From: Candidatus Bathyarchaeota archaeon | Lineage (GTDB): Archaea; Thermoproteota; Bathyarchaeia; Bathyarchaeales; Bathycorpusculaceae | Reading direction: 5' to 3' | Assembly (NCBI GenBank): GCA_963717465.1 | Contig: OY970340.1 | Span: 1,472,001-1,536,000 of the forward strand | DNA length: 64,000 nucleotides | Shown here: positions 30,371 through 51,416 of the stretch, one piece after another | How the letters are laid out: every line of letters begins with the position of its first letter | Numbering within the stretch: position 1 is the first letter of the stretch | The notes under the pieces: generated by a model | What the model was told of the DNA's origin: nothing | Database searches by the model: none | The model's input: only the letters and a program-made list of their open reading frames with translations | Program-made: the position numbers and the translations under genes

Positions 30371-32902
30371 TTATTGCTTTGAATTACCTGCTGATTTAGA
30401 ATCAACTGCAGTTGTGGGGACTTCAGATTTAGGCTCAGCCGCAATTGTTTTATCTTTAAGCATGTTGTCCAAGAATGGTTTTAGTTTAGTGTTTTCTGCT
30501 TGTATCTTTTCTTTGCCGAGTGTTTTCATGTTGCCGTCCATTTCTTTGATTAATTCAGCGAACCTTACTCCTTCAGAAGCTGAAATGTATTCAACTCGGA
30601 ACCTTTCAGAACTCAATCCCAGCTTAGTCAACACATTCTGTAGTGTGTCTGTTCGTGCCTTCATCTCCACATTCCCACTTATATAATGGCAATCGTATGG
30701 AAGATGGCATGCTCCAATCAAAACCATGCCTGCGCCCAATCGGTAAGCTTCCAAAACAAAATTACGAGCAACTCTTCCAGAGCACATTACACGGATTACT
30801 CTTACGCTTGGCGAGTACTCAAATCTGCTTGTTCCAGCCAAGTCTGCCCCTGCATAACTGCACCAGTTACACAGGAAAGCCAAAATTTTTCCTTCAGGTT
30901 TTTCCTCAAGTGCAGCTCGAATCTGAGCCATAATCTGGGCGTCAGTGAAATGCATTTGAGTTATGGCATCACTTGGGCATTCTGCAACGCATGTTCCGCA
31001 CCCATGGCAGTTTGCAGTGGTAACTGTGGCTGCCTCGTTTTCTTTTATGGTTATGGCTTTGTATGGACATTTTTCAGCGCAAATGCCGCACTTAGCTTTT
31101 ACGTTTTTGCATTTTGTTGGGTCTACAATTGATATGAGAGGTTCAATTTTCCACGTGGGCTTCATGAGCACTGTTGCTGCCCGTGCTGCTGCGCCGCTTC
31201 CTTGCGTGACGCTTGCTGGGATATCTTTAAGTCCTTGGCAGGCTCCTGCGAAGAAAATGCCATCAGAAGCAGCGTCCATCGGCTTAAGTTTCGGGTGGCT
31301 TTCCATGAAAAACCCGTCCTGGCCTCTTGTCAAGTTAAGTATGCGAGCAACGTTTTCCGTGCCTTCTTTAGGTATCGCAGCTGTGGCTAAAACTACCATG
31401 TCAACTTCGACGTTAACCATTTTTCCAAGAACCAAATCCACCGCATTTATCGACAGGTTGTTAGTTTTTGGGTCTTCCTCAATTTCAGTCGGTACACCCT
31501 TGATGAAATTCACCCATAAATTTCTGGCTCGAGTGTAGAAATCCTCGTATCCTTTTCCTGGACTGCGAATGTCAATGTAAAAAACATAGACTTCTATGTC
31601 TTGCTTGTACTTCTCTTTAAGCTGAATCGCATGCTTTAGACTGTACATGCAGCAAAAATTGGAGCAATATGAGTATTTTCTGATGTCTCTGGATCCGACG
31701 CATTGAATGAACGCTATGCGGTCAGGTTTTTTTCCATCCGATTGCCTGATAACTTTGCCGCCTGTTGGTCCAGCAGCCAATATTAGTCTTTCAAACTCAA
31801 GCGACGTAATTACATTGGGGTATTTGCCGTAACCAAGCTGTGGCTTATCAAGCGGAAAATACACGTCATATCCAGTCGAGACTATTATCGCGCCAACATC
31901 AAACTCGACATCCTCAGGCTTCTGCTCAAAGTCAATCGCATCCCGCGAACCACAGACGTCGACGCATTTTGAACATTCGATACAGTAATCGCGATTAATC
32001 GTGTAAACAAGAGGCACCGCCTGGTCACAGGGCACCGAAATTGCTTTTCGGACTCCAAGATTCATATCCCACGGGTTCGGGTACTCAATTGGGCAGGTAT
32101 CTCTGCATTCTCCGCATCCAGTGCAGTTCTGCGCGATAACGTAACGAGGATTTTTGCGAACCTTCACATGAAAGTTGCCGATGAATCCTGACACGCCAAC
32201 TAAATCTGCAAAAGAAATAATTTGGATGTTAGGGTGACGACCAACATCAACCATTTTTGGTCCTTCAATACAAATGCTGCAGTCAAGCGTTGGAAACGTC
32301 TTGTCCAGTTGAGCCATGTGTCCGCCGATGCTTTCGCTTTTTTCAACAAGGTACACTTTGATGCCCATTTCTGCTAAATCTAAAGCAGCGCTTATTCCAG
32401 CAATTCCACCGCCAAGCACCATTGCCTTGTTCGTAACTGGAACTTCAATTCTTGTTAACGGTTGAAGCAATCGGGCTTTTGCAACCGCCATCTTTATTAT
32501 ATCTTTAGATTTTTCCATGGCTTCTTCAGGCTGTCCAGAATGAGGCCACGAAGAAAACTCGCGGATGTTCGCTATCTCAAGCAGGAACGGGTTTAATCCA
32601 GCCTCGGAAATTGTTCTCCTAAAAGTCTGCTCATGCATTCTTGGGGAGCAGGCAGCCACTACAACACGGTTAAGCTTGCTTTCTTTGATTGCTTTGCGTA
32701 TTATTTCTTGTCCAGGATCAGCGCATAAGTACCGGTTTTCTTTAGCAACGACGACATCCGGCAACGTTTTTGAGAATTTCACAAGAGCCTTTATGTCCAA
32801 TGTTCCAGCAATGTTCAATCCACAATGACAAATGAAAATGCCTATCCGTGGTTTTCCTATCTTTTGCTCAGGCGCTACATCAATTTCCGACGCGAGATTC
32901 AC
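30371..32902 (-). CDS. hdrA: HdrA-MvhD fusion, all-cysteine copy
   Basis: [31 protein letters not shown], ferredoxin inserts, C-terminal MvhD (CNWCSYAGADLAG, RVMCSGR, CH...CHY). Confidence 0.93.
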   Translation of the reverse strand: MNLASEIDVAPEQKIGKPRIGIFICHCGLNIAGTLDIKALVKFSKTLPDVVVAKENRYLCADPGQEIIRKAIKESKLNRVVVAACSPRMHEQTFRRTISEAGLNPFLLEIANIREFSSWPHSGQPEEAMEKSKDIIKMAVAKARLLQPLTRIEVPVTNKAMVLGGGIAGISAALDLAEMGIKVYLVEKSESIGGHMAQLDKTFPTLDCSICIEGPKMVDVGRHPNIQIISFADLVGVSGFIGNFHVKVRKNPRYVIAQNCTGCGECRDTCPIEYPNPWDMNLGVRKAISVPCDQAVPLVYTINRDYCIECSKCVDVCGSRDAIDFEQKPEDVEFDVGAIIVSTGYDVYFPLDKPQLGYGKYPNVITSLEFERLILAAGPTGGKVIRQSDGKKPDRIAFIQCVGSRDIRKYSYCSNFCCMYSLKHAIQLKEKYKQDIEVYVFYIDIRSPGKGYEDFYTRARNLWVNFIKGVPTEIEEDPKTNNLSINAVDLVLGKMVNVEVDMVVLATAAIPKEGTENVARILNLTRGQDGFFMESHPKLKPMDAASDGIFFAGACQGLKDIPASVTQGSGAAARAATVLMKPTWKIEPLISIVDPTKCKNVKAKCGICAEKCPYKAITIKENEAATVTTANCHGCGTCVAECPSDAITQMHFTDAQIMAQIRAALEEKPEGKILAFLCNWCSYAGADLAGTSRFEYSPSVRVIRVMCSGRVARNFVLEAYRLGAGMVLIGACHLPYDCHYISGNVEMKARTDTLQNVLTKLGLSSERFRVEYISASEGVRFAELIKEMDGNMKTLGKEKIQAENTKLKPFLDNMLKDKTIAAEPKSEVPTTAVDSKSAGNSKQ

Positions 32903-46255: not shown

Positions 46256-47493
46256 AAAACATGACGGTAATAACAGTTTTAGAAAATAGTTTAAGGATTG
46301 CTTGGAAGGACATTAGAGCGATGAGTCGAATGAAGGGAGTAATGGTGATGCTTATTCTTATGCCGATATTTATGATGGTTATGGTTGGCTTCATTTATCC
46401 AAGCGGCAGTTCCGTTGATATGAGTAGCTTAAAAGTTCAAGTTATCAACCAAGATATAGGATACAATAATGTTAGTTTAAGCGGGATTTTTACTTCAGCC
46501 TTTACTGTAGCTAATAATAATAGTACTAAAATGCAATTATTCACTGGTGCTAATGGCACAAATGAAGATACACTTAAGGACAGCATTAAGCAAGGTGATT
46601 TTGATGCAGGCATTATTATTCCTGAGAATTTCACCTATTGTATCCTGACTAAGCAGAAAGTAAACATAACTGTCATTACAGATAATTCTAATCCGCAAAT
46701 CAGTCAATATTCTAGTGCCGCGTTGCAAGGATTAGTGGGAGCTGGCTGGGAAGGACTGATGATTGCACCAACTGTGAATCAGCAAATTGCACAGTTGTTC
46801 AGTTATTACAATCTGACAGACCCTAATGCAGGGTATTACATGGCACCTTATGCAGTCGCTTCAAGTGGTGTTGTAGGTGGTGCTAACACAAACTACTTCG
46901 AATTTATTGCTCCTGCCATGATAATGATGACTGTAATGTTCAGTGTAATGACTAATCTGCCGCAAGCTATAACTCATGAAAGAGAATTGGGCACGTTAGA
47001 TGGCATTATGGTTGCTCCGATTAATAGACTTTCAATTATAGTTGGAAAAACATTGTCTTCACTTGTGTATGGCTTAATTCAGGGCTTAATAATAATGGCA
47101 TTATCAATAGGTTTATTCGGAGTTACCATACAGGGAAACATTTTGCTCGTATTTGGTTTACTGTTTCTTGGCGTTTTCAGCTTTGTAGGATTAGGTATAG
47201 CTTTAACTTCACTTGCAAAAGATCAGCAGACAGCCTCAATGATAATGATGACATTGACATTCCCGATGATGATTCTCAGTGGCATATTCTTCCCGATAAA
47301 AATGATGCCACAATTCATGCAATATATCAGTGATTGCCTGCCGTTAACTTACGCTGCGGATGCCATGAGGAAAGTTATGGTGTTAGGTGCAAATGTTTCA
47401 CAGATATCAACAGACCTGATCGTGCTAATTGTGTTCGGCATAGTTATGCTCGTAATCGCAGTGCCAATATTTAGAAGGATGATGACAAGATAA
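46252..47493 (+). CDS. ABC-2 exporter permease
   Basis: ERELGTLDGIMVAP, LSGIFFP, PLTYAADAMR. Confidence 0.9.
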   Translation: MKNMTVITVLENSLRIAWKDIRAMSRMKGVMVMLILMPIFMMVMVGFIYPSGSSVDMSSLKVQVINQDIGYNNVSLSGIFTSAFTVANNNSTKMQLFTGANGTNEDTLKDSIKQGDFDAGIIIPENFTYCILTKQKVNITVITDNSNPQISQYSSAALQGLVGAGWEGLMIAPTVNQQIAQLFSYYNLTDPNAGYYMAPYAVASSGVVGGANTNYFEFIAPAMIMMTVMFSVMTNLPQAITHERELGTLDGIMVAPINRLSIIVGKTLSSLVYGLIQGLIIMALSIGLFGVTIQGNILLVFGLLFLGVFSFVGLGIALTSLAKDQQTASMIMMTLTFPMMILSGIFFPIKMMPQFMQYISDCLPLTYAADAMRKVMVLGANVSQISTDLIVLIVFGIVMLVIAVPIFRRMMTR

Positions 47494-47919
47494 ACTAGAA
47501 AGGCAGCTACATGCAAGCAACATTTTAAATTTCTTTTTTTTATTTCTTTCCGTACCATTAAAACTCGCGAGCACTATCGAGCTTTTTTCTTATGGTACGT
47601 CTAACTTTTGCTAACACGCGCGGCGCTCGTTAGCTGCAGAATTATAGGTTTTTACTAAACTATGCATTTCTGAATTATTTTAACCGGTTACTCTTTTTTC
47701 TTACTTTTTCCTAGAACCTGTTCCTCGCACTCTTGTTTAGCACCATTTTACGATTGTTTAAGCCTTTATCGATTTGCATTCGCCGCTAATCTGAACCATA
47801 AAGAACAAGTCGAAGCTATTATTGATTAAGAAAATTGAGATAGTCATGTAGTGCTATTTAATAAAGGCAAGCAAGCAAATCAAGATACTAATTATTAAGC
47901 AAAAAAGTTGGTAGTTTAT

Positions 47920-50484
47920 TTAGACGGGTTTTCCCCCGTCGGTAGCTTTGGCAACTGGAGCAACAGGTTTTGCCACAGCTTGGTCGGCTGGTTTAGCTGC
48001 TGGGGCTGCTGCTGGAGCTGGGGCTGCTTTGCGTTTTAGCATGTTCTCTAGTGTTGGTTTAAGTTTTGCGTTTTCGGCTTTGATTTTGTCTTTTCCCAGT
48101 GTCTTAATTTGCTCGGTCATTTCCTTAACTATATCGGCGAATTTCGGTCCTTCAGCTGATGAAACATAATCAACCCTGAGTCTTTCTGGGCTCAACCCGA
48201 GCTTTTGAAGCATGCCAGATAAGGCATCCATGCGTGCTTTCATCTTTACGTTTCCAGAGATATAATGGCAATCGCTGGGAAGATGGCAAGCGGCAATCAG
48301 TACCCCTGCTGCTCCTAACCTAAATGCTTCCATAACGAAGTCCTTGTCCACTCGTCCAGTACACATTACTCGAATAGACCGTGTCATTGGCGGGTATTCA
48401 AGCCGGCTCGTCCCTGCACGGTCCGCGCCGGCGTAACCTCACCAGTTACACATAAACGTCAGTATCTTATCTTCCGGGTCTTTTTCTAGCGCACCCCTGA
48501 TTTGTGAGAATATTTGTTCATCCGTAAAGTGCATCTGAGTTAAAGCATCTTGCGGGCATTCTGCAACACATGTTCCACAACCGTGGCACATAGCCGCATT
48601 GATCTGGGCTGGTTGTCCCGGATTCGCAGTTATGGCTCCAAAGGGGCAGCTTTTTACGCATATTCCGCATTTTGCTTTTGCGTTTCTGCACTTGGCTACG
48701 TCAACTATCGAGACGATGGGTTCTATCAACCATTTGGGTTGAGAAAGGATGGTTGCAGCTCGTGCTGCTGCGCCGCTTCCTTGTGATACGCTGTAGGGTA
48801 TGTCTTTTGGTCCTTGGGCAGCGCCTGCTATGAATACTCCATCCATAGGTGTATCGATTGGTTTGAGTTTTGGGTGGCTTTCCATGAAGAACCCGTCTGA
48901 TCCTCGCGTTATGTGGAGGATGCTGGCTAATTCTTGGGCTCCTTTGCTGGGTATTGCGGCTGTGCTTAACACAACGAGTTCCGTTTCGAGATCGAGGGGT
49001 AGTCCCAGCGCCATGTCTTCTGCTCGTACAATCAAGTTTTTGGTCTTTGTGTCTTCAATTATGTTGGATGCTTTTCCCCTGATGAAGTTGATTCCCATTT
49101 CACGGGCTCTTCGATAGAATTCTTCGTAGCCTTTGAAGGGAGTTCGCATATCCATGTAGAGAATGTAGACTTCCACATCATCATGGTAATGTTCTTTCAG
49201 AAGGATGGCTTCTTTGAGCCCATACATGCAGCAGAAACCTGAACAGTACTCGAACTTGTTTATGTCCCGTGAACCGACGCAATTAATGAAAGTGACGCTT
49301 TTCGGTTTCTTTCCATTGGACGGGCGGATCATGTGTCCACTTGTTGGGCCGCCTGCTGTGATAAGTCTCTCAAACTCCAAAGCTGTAATTACGTTATCGT
49401 ATTTTCCATAGCCGTACCTGGCGTCGTCATAAGGCATATAAAAGTCGCAACCGGTTGTTACGATGATTGCTCCAACTTCCAATTCAACTTCTTCCGGCTT
49501 CTGATCAAAATTGATAGCTTCACGTGCACCACAAGCATCAACGCATTTGAAGCACTCTATGCAGTAATCCCTGTTTATTGAGTAGATAAGAGGCACTGCC
49601 TGATCAAACGGAATGGAGATAGCTTTTCTTAAACCTAAATTCATCTCAAACTCATTAGGATACTCTATTGGGCAAGCATCTCTGCATTCACCACAACCAG
49701 TACATTTTCCAGCCATAACGTACCTTGGGTTCTTGCGAACCTTCACTCTGAAATTGCCCACAAACCCCTCCACGTTGAGGACGTCCGCATTGGATATTAC
49801 TTGGACCTTAGGATGGCGATATACTTCCACCATCCTAGGTCCTTCTATTCATATGCTGCAGTCTAAAGTGGGAAAAGTCTTGTCGAGTTGTGCCATGTGA
49901 CCTCCTATGCTCGTGTTCTTCTCGACAAGGTATACTTGGAACCCCATGTTCGCCAAATCAAGAGCGGATTGGATGCCGGAAATGCCTCCGCCGATAACCA
50001 AGGCGTTTTTTGTCACCGGCACCTCCATGGTTTCAAGAGGCGCAAGTAACCTCGCTTTGGCAACAGCCATCCTTACAATGTCTTTTGCTTTTTCCGTGGC
50101 TTCTTTCGGAGTGCTGGGATGGCACCACGAAGAGAATTCACGTATGTTGGCCATTTCAAAAACATAAGGATTTAACCCTGCTTCACTTACGGTTTTCCGA
50201 AATGTTGGCTCATGCATTCTTGGGCTGCAAGCGGCTACAACGACGCGGTTTAGTTTGTGTTCTTTTATTGCTTTTCTGATTTCTTCTTGTCCGGGGTCGG
50301 CGCATGTGTAACGGTTCTCTTTAACTAAAACAACGTCAGGTATCGTTTTAGCGTATTCGACTACTTGTTTAATGTCAATTGTGCCAGCGATGTTTAAGCC
50401 GCAGTGGCAAACAAAAACTCCCACTCGTAAAGGTTCTGGTTGTTTGGCGGATTCAATTGGTTTCTGTGTTTCTTTATTGCTCAT
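47920..50484 (-). CDS. hdrA: HdrA-MvhD fusion, putative selenoprotein (854 aa; in-frame TGA at codons 212 and 682)
   Basis: ORFs 49849-50484, 48439-49833 and 47920-48387 share one frame; TLDCSI[TGA]IEGP and CNW[TGA]GYAGAD align to Cys codons of the paralog at 30371-32902. Confidence 0.85.
48402..48432 (-). promoter_or_regulatory. Candidate in-CDS SECIS hairpin for the MvhD-domain UGA
   Basis: GCCGGC-G-CG-GA-CC-[GUGCA]-GG-GA-CG-A-GCCGGC, starting 6 nt 3' of the UGA (48439-48441). Confidence 0.6.
49803..49842 (-). promoter_or_regulatory. Candidate in-CDS SECIS hairpin for the HdrA-domain UGA
   Basis: GGACCUAGGAUGGUG-[GAAGUAUAU]-CGCCAUCCUAAGGUCC, 15 bp with one bulged A, starting 6 nt 3' of the UGA (49849-49851). 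Confidence 0.72.
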
Positions 50485-51416
50485 TTTGAAACCTCTTCAA
50501 CAAATAATCTTCTTTCTACTGCTTCCTTTCTTTTCGAGGCAGCAGCAGCTTTCAATTCTTTAATAGCCTCAACAGGTGAAGTAAGCCTTTCTAAGGATTT
50601 ATTCCATGTCCCTGAATGAATTGGAGTATGGTATATTTTGGTTCTTTTTAACCTTAGGGCTTCATCAACAGGACAAACCACTTTGCACGCACCGCAGAAA
50701 TCGCAAAAAACATCGTTCACATGAACTTTTTTATCCTCGCCAAGCGTTAAGGCTCCTGGTATGGGGCAGACGTCAAGGCAATCTCTGCAACCTTCAGGGC
50801 ATTTCTCCTGATCAATCTCTAATTATCCCTTCAATGCACTTTTTAACTTTAATCACTCCCGGTGCACATTTGAACTCGCAAACTCTGCAGGTTGGGCAAT
50901 ACTCTTTTTGAATGTCAAGGTTAACTCGCACATGTTTTTTTTCGTGTGGTGGCAATACATCTAGATTTTCCATTAGTTTGCCGTCGGATCAGTTTTTATA
51001 ACTTTAATTAAAGATAGAGGACATGCGCTTTCACACTCGACGCATTCCTTTGGGCACTGACGTGAATTTACCGTAATATCGCGGATGAGTGATGGATAGC
51101 TTTCTTTTGACAACACAGCAAGATCATGCTTGCCATTTAACGTCACTTTAATAGCTCCATATGGACAGGTGACGTCGCAAATACCGCAAAAACTGCATTT
51201 CGCTAAGTCAATGTCGACTTTGGCTTTCTTTGTTTTTTCTCCCTGCACCTTTGGTTGCTTTTCGAGTGTTATTACACCTTTTGGGCAGGCTAAACTGCAT
51301 ATTTGGCAGCCTACACACCGCTTTTTATCTAACATTAGCTTGAGATCCTTTACTGGCAAAATCCACTCTAAAGTTAAAGAATCTGCGGAGTTTTTCTTTA
51401 TTGTTTTTAAAGGCAC
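50481..51416 (-). CDS. Polyferredoxin (FwdF/MvhB-like), frameshifted; stop overlaps the start of the TGA-containing hdrA
   Basis: Six CxxCxxCxxxCP-type motifs across the frames. Confidence 0.8.

Follow-up and report, generated by a model that had tools for sequence, protein, structure and literature searches.

In reviews up to 2026, as far as their portions on archaea go, the elements that specify selenocysteine (Sec) at UGA codons in this domain, the Sec insertion sequences (SECIS), are always placed in an untranslated region (UTR), and Methanococcales, Methanopyrales and Asgard archaea are the only groups said to use Sec (PMC13188914, PMC11227280, PMC11431864, PMC8211752). Methanococcales and Methanopyrus carry the element in the 3' UTR (in one case in the 5' UTR), with a GAA_A internal loop between two stems, the upper one having three G-C pairs, and at no strict distance from the codon (PMC9622424 and PMC13188914, both in part). 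That of M. maripaludis acts over a range of 88-679 nucleotides (nt) and its binding factor is described as unknown (PMC9622424, same part), the identity of an archaeal SECIS-binding factor still being lacking in the literature as this text and an excerpt of PMC8211752 present it. The SECIS of Asgard archaea and eukaryotes is a kink-turn stem-loop of the 3' UTR, built on an AUGA/GA core and topped by an A-rich apical loop. In Lokiarchaeota, according to the relevant passages of PMC4989117, a single AUGA..GA element 3' of VhuD is used for every UGA of a gene pair, and RNAz detected no structure in the coding sequences. Elements within the coding sequence are described in bacteria, where the SECIS of E. 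coli fdhF/fdnG is a stem-loop directly 3' of the UGA, one per UGA and at a fixed distance, and in eukaryotes, where the Sec redefinition element (SRE) of SELENON and SELENOT is a conserved hairpin a few nt 3' of the UGA which occurs in some genes only and acts as no more than a helper to a SECIS in the 3' UTR; recoding by the SRE depends on its stem, loop and spacer (PMC8704476, in part). No description of a codon-proximal SECIS in archaea was found by full-text searches of the main texts of openly available papers. Here we present a 64,000-nt stretch of a Candidatus Bathyarchaeota genome (assembly GCA_963717465.1, contig OY970340.1, positions 1,472,001 to 1,536,000; hereafter the window, whose coordinates are written in the form a..b), in which a gene for an HdrA-MvhD fusion protein has two in-frame UGA codons, each followed by a hairpin in the coding sequence. 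We think, with a probability of roughly 0.55, that hairpins of this type are the SECIS of this lineage, that is, its cis-acting elements for Sec recoding.

Two UGA codons and two hairpins in the HdrA-MvhD gene

The gene lies on the minus strand of the window as a frame of 854 codons (50484..47920) which is open only if both of its TGA codons are read through in translation. Pfam identifies FlpD/MvhD at residues 674-797 of the fusion protein (E 5e-47) and several Fer4/4Fe-4S motifs, together with an N-terminal FAD/NAD-binding part that we take to be HdrA. This label agrees with PMC4989117, where archaeal HdrA is said to carry Sec near residue 200. The first UGA (codon 212, 49849..49851) stands in the motif DCSIU and the second (codon 682, 48439..48441) in the motif CNWU of the MvhD domain. 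Cys faces both UGAs in 28 aligned orthologs, and the site of U212 is occupied by Cys at eight further HdrA paralog sites of the same genome; a Cys paralog, 68% identical, is present on the minus strand of the window (30371..32902), with TGT at the equivalent site (32272..32270) and no comparable hairpin. UGA is thus found opposite Cys of homologues in a genome possessing tRNA-Sec and the Sec machinery, the Sec/Cys pair by which a selenoprotein gene is recognised. Of 20 orthologous loci inspected, 18 retain both UGAs, with the second at +1410, and the other two are frame-disrupted.

A sequence-only reading of the window had claimed that a hairpin lies inside the coding sequence 6 nt past the first UGA, with a 15-bp stem, one bulged A and a loop whose first base is a G, 21 nt past that UGA. 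We find this hairpin, which we call H1, on the minus strand at 49842..49803, behind the 6-nt spacer AUAGAA (49843..49848). It is made up of GGACCUAGGAUGGUG, GAAGUAUAU and CGCCAUCCUAAGGUCC, which form 15-16 bp interrupted by a single bulged A and capped by a loop of 7-9 nt; the loop begins at the claimed distance from the UGA, and RNAfold adds one further G-C pair, leaving a 7-nt loop. The fold of 81 nt has an energy of -28.8 kcal/mol (z -4.75) and that of the 63 nt from the UGA one of -25.8 kcal/mol (z -6.19), neither being equalled by any of 200 shuffles. It had also been claimed that the Cys paralog, whose quoted string occurs once (32224..32263, minus strand), is unable to form the long stem, and that its peptide differs from that of the Sec form: the peptides do differ as claimed, and the same 63 nt from the TGT of the paralog reach only -12.0 (z -0.87), a value equalled by 37 of 200 shuffles.

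The association of the hairpin with UGA, and not with Cys, holds throughout the orthologs. Among the best 30 loci from the genomes of 61 relatives, the two Sec forms have the hairpin (75-nt folds of -27.4 and -28.1), whereas the 28 Cys orthologs lack it (-7.5 to -21.5). The pattern FPTxDCxx-TGA is matched in 25 of the 332 genomes of the family; 22 of these matches are orthologs of the type IEGP(R/K)MV(E/D)V, all 22 with the hairpin (81 nt: -20.7 to -33.0), and of the remaining three, two belong to different types of HdrA paralog, in which a shorter hairpin occupies this position, and one appears fortuitous. In metagenomes, the pattern DCSI-TGA-IEGP, which stops short of the variable part of the stem, gave 43 contigs with 30 distinct full 60-mers: the two-part stem is found in 28, one has the 11-bp inner stem only (-18.8), and in one, the weakest Sec form, the stem is down to 7 bp and a G-C pair is replaced by C-G (-12.6). 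For the whole collection we used the minimum free energy of the 63 nt from the UGA or the Cys codon (MFE63), with a threshold of -17 kcal/mol. Pooled from overlapping lists, 84 reads gave 42 distinct Sec 63-mers, of which 41 reach the threshold (mean -24.8), against 1 of the 28 Cys orthologs (mean -10.9). The sequence-only reading had staked its proposal on the hairpin being kept in TGA-containing orthologs and not equally present in Cys ones, which is the distribution observed. Outside the family, the pattern scan of a class sample of 401 genomes gave one further match (G628, FPTSDCVI-TGA). A locus labelled Candidatus Bathyarchaeota (L058) has a different HdrA paralog type in which, as judged by eye, a hairpin of 7 bp opens into its loop at nt 26.

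H1 is conserved beyond the needs of the protein. Its outer pairs are exclusive to Sec forms and made by amino-acid changes (K>R, N>K, I>V), and its inner six pairs are supplied at no cost by the peptide, MV being written AUGGUG and RH being written CGCCAU. Among the 18 full-length orthologs the synonymous diversity across H1 is 0.12-0.15, about the 1st percentile of 11-codon windows, compared with 0.333 for the gene as a whole. Low values are also seen at codons 65-77 (0.107) and 123-137 (0.12), both Lys/Glu-rich, where they may be due to codon bias rather than to structure.

The second UGA is followed, again after 6 nt, by a hairpin that we call H2 (48402..48432, minus strand), of the form GCCGGC-G-CG-GA-CC-loop-GG-GA-CG-A-GCCGGC. 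The arrangement UGA-GGUUAY-GCCGGC...GCCGGC is found in all 18 orthologs; across 22 distinct sequences none of the 10 pairs changes, nor does the GA/GA internal loop, whereas the apical loop is variable, its first base being G in 19 and U in 3 of the 22. The synonymous diversity at H2 (0.055, 18 orthologs) is the minimum of the gene. No counterpart exists in the 28 Cys orthologs (60-nt folds of -8.1 to -22.8, vs -23.0 and -24.3 in Sec forms), and the peptide reads DRAG..RL in Sec forms as against DLAG..RF in Cys forms.

Two observations on the gene itself may be added. A 79-codon open reading frame (ORF) on the same strand (50481..50720) ends in an overlap with the start codon of HdrA-MvhD, as ATGA, which suggests translational coupling. 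The Sec-HdrA orthologs of G230 and G501 are frame-disrupted, one by a 1-nt insertion in the loop of H1 and the other by a break about 246 nt past the UGA; these are pseudogenes or assembly errors.

A molybdoenzyme family with the same arrangement, and SelD

A scan of the whole genome for in-frame TGAs between two coding-looking halves yielded 153 candidates, which were ranked by 63-nt fold energy. H1 takes rank 1 and H2 rank 4, and most of the other top ranks are held by one repeated gene, an FdhA-like molybdopterin oxidoreductase (Molybdop_Fe4S4, Molybdopterin and Molydop_binding domains) with a TGA near codon 150. Eleven paralogs of it, outside the window, have the TGA at the same codon, and 8 of them are uninterrupted on both sides; on the contig the TGAs are at 124642(-), 132694(-), 480584(-), 617083(+), 1134713(-), 1211628(+), 1822504(+), 2055182(+), 2378454(-), 2495990(-) and 2799134(-). 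The hairpin, CCCACG..CCAAGCCU-loop-AGGCU-A-UGG-CGUGGG with energies of -17.1 to -24.5 and a loop that mostly reads UAGGAUU, is separated from the UGA by 6 nt in 10 of the 11 paralogs and by 7 nt in the most divergent one.

This family does show covariation. In the alignment 89% of cells pair, vs 23-47% if the partners are slid by 1-3 columns; both-sided changes occur in 5 of the 14 hairpin pairs, a number reached by 1 of 500 shuffles, and the covariation score of 0.187 is reached by none of 500. At the codons of the hairpin the synonymous diversity is 0.234 vs 0.436, the 2nd lowest of 705 windows, in a test on 8 paralogs from which one that is only 36% identical and two truncated ones were excluded.

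Homologues of the family are found in 106 of the 401 genomes of the class sample (this genome included), at no more than 43% identity, and in none of the 39 of its own genus; a search of 18 chosen relatives at E 1e-60 also gave no homologue. All six homologues that aligned have Cys at the U position, with folds of -9.7 to -20.2. Two more TGA-bearing homologues were rejected as Sec sites, one TGA being a true stop codon and the other standing at a conserved Trp position; in the homologue L315 (genome G224) the TGA at the conserved Trp (GENK*QRISW vs GKWQKISW) is an error or marks a pseudogene. Most of the FdhA-like paralogs of our genome also have a conserved box, TTTTGTCGCAAAA with variants, some 60-110 nt 5' of the start codon and directly before a TATA-like CTTAAATA, which may be the site of a shared regulator.

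Taken over the 13 compact Sec sites, the geometry is nearly uniform: MFE63 is at or below -17.1 in 13/13, the first position of the main stem is nt 10 at 12 sites and nt 11 at the remaining one, and the apical loop starts at nt 23-28. The spacing is fixed in three gene families. As a background, -17 is reached by 2.35% of 469 TGA codons that end long ORFs (mean -8.4) and by 5.3% of 700 sampled Cys codons within long ORFs (mean -10.3).

A third selenoprotein family of this genome is SelD, with UGA at codon 14 (contig position 951702). Its first 63 nt hold no compact hairpin; what is present is a long structure of about 100 nt, beginning at nt 13 (9 nt past the UGA), whose arms are near-identical in 6 genomes. 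The energy of 110 nt (MFE110) is -33 to -47 in the 6 Sec forms vs -20 to -41.5 in Cys orthologs, so that the structure is partly shared by both. The 3' flanks of SelD are not conserved, and in this genome the PSTK-SelB gene follows about 90 nt downstream. The 23 genomes in which the Sec-HdrA pattern occurs yielded 20 SelD genes, 14 of them encoding Cys; therefore, in many relatives, HdrA-MvhD is the sole selenoprotein found here.

Sec machinery and the search for a distal SECIS

The genome is a single contig of 3.05 Mb with 40% G+C, on which an archaeal small-subunit rRNA (SSU) model matched over its full length. Its Sec machinery is of archaeal type: there are two tRNA-Sec genes, at 845693(+) and 2829638(-), a SepSecS (400 bits), the Sec-containing SelD and two fusions of PSTK with an archaeal SelB (aSelB). 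The first fusion, of 721 aa (952775-954940, plus strand), directly follows SelD and comprises KTI12/PSTK, EF-Tu GTPase, domain 2 and aSelB_III; its residues 265-716 align to Methanococcus SelB (4ac9) with E 2e-79, the SelB part being covered at full length. The second, of 730 aa (2827363-2829555, minus strand), adjoins the second tRNA-Sec, and the SelB parts of the two are 55% identical. Neither SelA (PF03841) nor the winged-helix domain of bacterial SelB (PF09107) was found in the genome, for which 12% of marker genes are scored missing, and a tblastn search for SelB returned archaeal-type paralogs only. The sequence-only reading had left two options, decoding of a bacterial type or by a new UGA-proximal mechanism; we reject the former because the machinery is archaeal and no SelA or bacterial SelB winged-helix domain was found.

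A PSTK-aSelB fusion has been reported earlier for Bathyarchaeota. It is reported for species of Archaeoglobi as well (PMC8762117), in a text from which the word SECIS is absent. The five relatives tested have one PSTK-aSelB each, with one tRNA-Sec above the Rfam cut-off in four of them and two in G496, and the second PSTK-aSelB/tRNA-Sec module of our genome might cater for the 11 selenoproteins of the expanded molybdoenzyme family. In relatives (G390, G502, G260, G496, G415) Sec-HdrA-MvhD, tRNA-Sec and PSTK-aSelB form a Sec island within some 2-10 kb, unlike in this genome, where these genes are scattered.

A canonical SECIS in a UTR would have told against the proposal of the sequence-only reading, and none was found in the flanks scanned. 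Rfam gave no family of relevance, SECIS included, either at the gathering score in the window or at E up to 10 in 47300..50600. Compared with 62 orthologous loci, the gene's own 3' flank (47494..47922) resembles none of them, and no conserved block 3' of the stop codon is shared by this genome and G009. In the 3' flanks of 18 orthologs, a scan for AUGA..GA elements of the eukaryotic SECIS (eSECIS) kind gave 2 weak matches vs 1.35 expected by shuffling, and one for the GAA_A element of the Methanococcus type gave 0 matches vs 0 in shuffles. In this genome neither scan had a match in the flanks (300 nt) of HdrA or of 9 FdhA-like genes, and the best 60-nt folds of these flanks are weak, at -7.6 to -14.4. 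Matches to a strict lokiSECIS-like pattern, sought over the whole genome, are scattered, and none stands beside these genes. By eye, the 5' flanks of the FdhA-like genes contain no conserved hairpin, a TATA-like box and a GGAG ribosome-binding site being what is present there.

Oligo-T is the usual terminator in archaea, and because of this the messages probably end near the runs of at least five T that begin 8-33 nt past the stop codon in 9 of the same 10 genes; for HdrA-MvhD the likely terminator is a T6 run (47901..47906, minus strand), 16 nt past the TAA stop (47922..47920). Some orthologs of the same genus have, as judged by eye, a small hairpin 20-35 nt past the stop codon, which is absent in this genome and in a second genus. 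Between the convergent genes, about 280-370 nt past the HdrA-MvhD stop, there are two stable hairpins (47549..47640 in minus reading), one GCUAAC..GUUAGC with a G+C-rich top and the other CGUACCAU..AUGGUACG; they are conserved in no ortholog locus and match no Rfam family.

Comparison with known systems, and competing explanations

The arrangement found here shares something with each of the described systems and coincides with none. Like the bacterial SECIS, the hairpins are coding-sequence stem-loops directly 3' of the UGA, one per UGA and at a fixed distance. The apical loop of a bacterial SECIS falls in a range of 16-37 nt, within which the apical loops of our hairpins also lie. Bacterial Sec-HdrA genes have the start of the loop most often at nt 26 (10/29 sites), which is where RNAfold places that of H1; however, their mean MFE63 is -13.3 vs -17 to -26 here, where the stems are longer. 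A G as the first base of the loop is seen in H1 and in most H2 sequences, without being strictly kept in the latter, and the FdhA-like loops mostly read UAGGAUU; no SelA, winged-helix SelB or Rfam SECIS match was found to go with them. With the SRE they have in common a conserved coding-sequence hairpin a few nt past the UGA in a setting of PSTK/SepSecS/EFSec-type machinery, and the spacer of the SELENON SRE is likewise 6 nt; the difference is that a hairpin here follows every compact site, with no UTR SECIS found. The likeness to Methanococcales and Methanopyrus is in the archaeal host, in the overlap of selenoprotein families (HdrA, VhuD/MvhD, SelD, FdhA) and in the short domain IV of aSelB, but the element differs in its place, its strict distance and its shape, H1 being without an internal loop and that of H2 being GA/GA. 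Asgard archaea also have HdrA and VhuD with several Sec, HdrA and MvhD being fused here; what sets our case apart from theirs is a hairpin per UGA and the lack of any AUGA..GA element in the scans. We consider the chances even that this is a third kind of archaeal SECIS, an in-frame hairpin for each UGA at a fixed 6-nt spacing, bacterial in position but operating with archaeal/eukaryal-type machinery that has neither SelA nor the RNA-binding domains of bacterial SelB.

If so, each Sec UGA would be marked by its own in-frame hairpin, 6 nt past the codon and with an apical loop from nt 23-28. With the UGA in the A site, the base of the stem would be expected, from ribosome geometry, to stand at the mRNA entrance with the upper stem-loop exposed, a position also used by the stimulators of frameshifting and read-through and by the upper part of the bacterial SECIS. 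The exposed hairpin could then favour the delivery of Sec-tRNA by aSelB over termination, either through contact with an adaptor or with aSelB itself, or just by making the ribosome pause or delaying termination; contact of the PSTK-fused aSelB with the RNA might be made through domain IV, and a distal UTR SECIS would not be needed. We infer from comparison that it is the hairpin which causes recoding and that no distal element takes part. The remaining option of the sequence-only reading, a new UGA-proximal mechanism, is supported by comparison, through the contrast of Sec and Cys forms, the second UGA, the 11 further genes and the failure to find a UTR SECIS in the scanned flanks.

Several of our observations weigh against taking the hairpins as the SECIS. 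H1 is nearly devoid of covariation among the 42 distinct Sec sequences because its stem hardly varies, and the nearly invariant stem of H2 gives almost none in 22; for this reason the support from these two consists of the Sec/Cys contrast and the synonymous constraint. On its own, the G+C-rich H2 does not stand out from its shuffles in fold energy (z -1.17). The FdhA-like family, from which the covariation comes, may be a recent import, because it is confined to this genome among those searched. The loops of H1, H2 and the FdhA-like hairpin differ in sequence, with no evident common recognition motif; aSelB is without a known RNA-binding extension, and that of Methanococcus is reported, in the part of PMC8211752 concerned, not to bind its SECIS. 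SelD, as described above, has no compact hairpin, and its longer structure is not exclusive to Sec forms. Finally, the UTR scans consisted of simple patterns and fold energies, which a distal element of another kind would escape.

The main competing explanation is that H1 is a helper like the SRE of SELENON, which hinders termination and makes recoding more efficient, while the insertion of Sec still depends on a distal SECIS of an unrecognised type, placed in a UTR or in another part of the message. A coding-sequence hairpin beside the UGA with a short spacer is just what defines an SRE (PMC8704476, in part), and machinery of the archaeal/eukaryal type is paired, in the characterised archaea covered by the excerpt of PMC9622424, with a UTR SECIS at 88-679 nt; SelD without its compact hairpin and the small post-stop hairpin of some genus-level orthologs could be read in the same way. 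We nevertheless think this unlikely: that post-stop hairpin is missing from the second genus and from our own genome, no distal element common to the flanks was found either in 18 orthologs or in 10 genes of this genome, oligo-T stands close behind most stop codons, and the hairpin occurs at 13/13 compact sites, whereas SREs are found only at some eukaryotic Sec codons (PMC8704476, same part). Less probable still is that the hairpins are real but concerned with something other than recoding, as elements of mRNA stability or pausing or as by-products of a partly palindromic peptide (MV...RH, GP...KV). The weak hairpins at the same place in Cys orthologs could be quoted in favour, as could the hairpin that bacterial Sec-HdrA genes centre there too and the fact that part of the pairing (AUGGUG/CGCCAU) is supplied at no cost by the peptide; but the structure is tied to UGA and not to Cys among orthologs 65-76% identical, the spacing is equal in two unrelated peptide contexts, the synonymous sites are frozen, and even the weakest of the 42 distinct Sec forms holds a 7-bp stem.

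One could also imagine a true bacterial Sec system, with SelA, winged-helix SelB and a bacterial SECIS gained by gene transfer, since the position and loose shape of the hairpins agree with the bacterial SECIS as characterised in a passage of PMC4989117, and the nearest Sec-HdrA outside the lineage is bacterial (up to 57% identity). This is already contradicted by the data and we regard it as highly improbable: the 3.05-Mb contig yielded no SelA or SelB-wing_3 and, by tblastn, only archaeal-type SelB, the Rfam SECIS models are unmatched, and archaeal Cys orthologs (65-76%) resemble the Sec-HdrA more closely than bacterial Sec forms do.

If the hairpins are the SECIS of this lineage, as we favour, whether a SECIS stands beside its codon or in a UTR would not be tied to the type of the machinery, and a codon-proximal signal could be either ancestral or easily re-evolved. 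Such genes are cut at the UGA by gene callers, and selenoprotein finders that rely on a SECIS and are tuned to archaeal UTR models would overlook them, which in this genome concerns 11 molybdoenzyme genes. The system would offer a simple setting in which to ask how archaeal SelB finds its codon, and whether a hairpin alone redefines UGA, and would bear on how the three domains came to place their SECIS differently.

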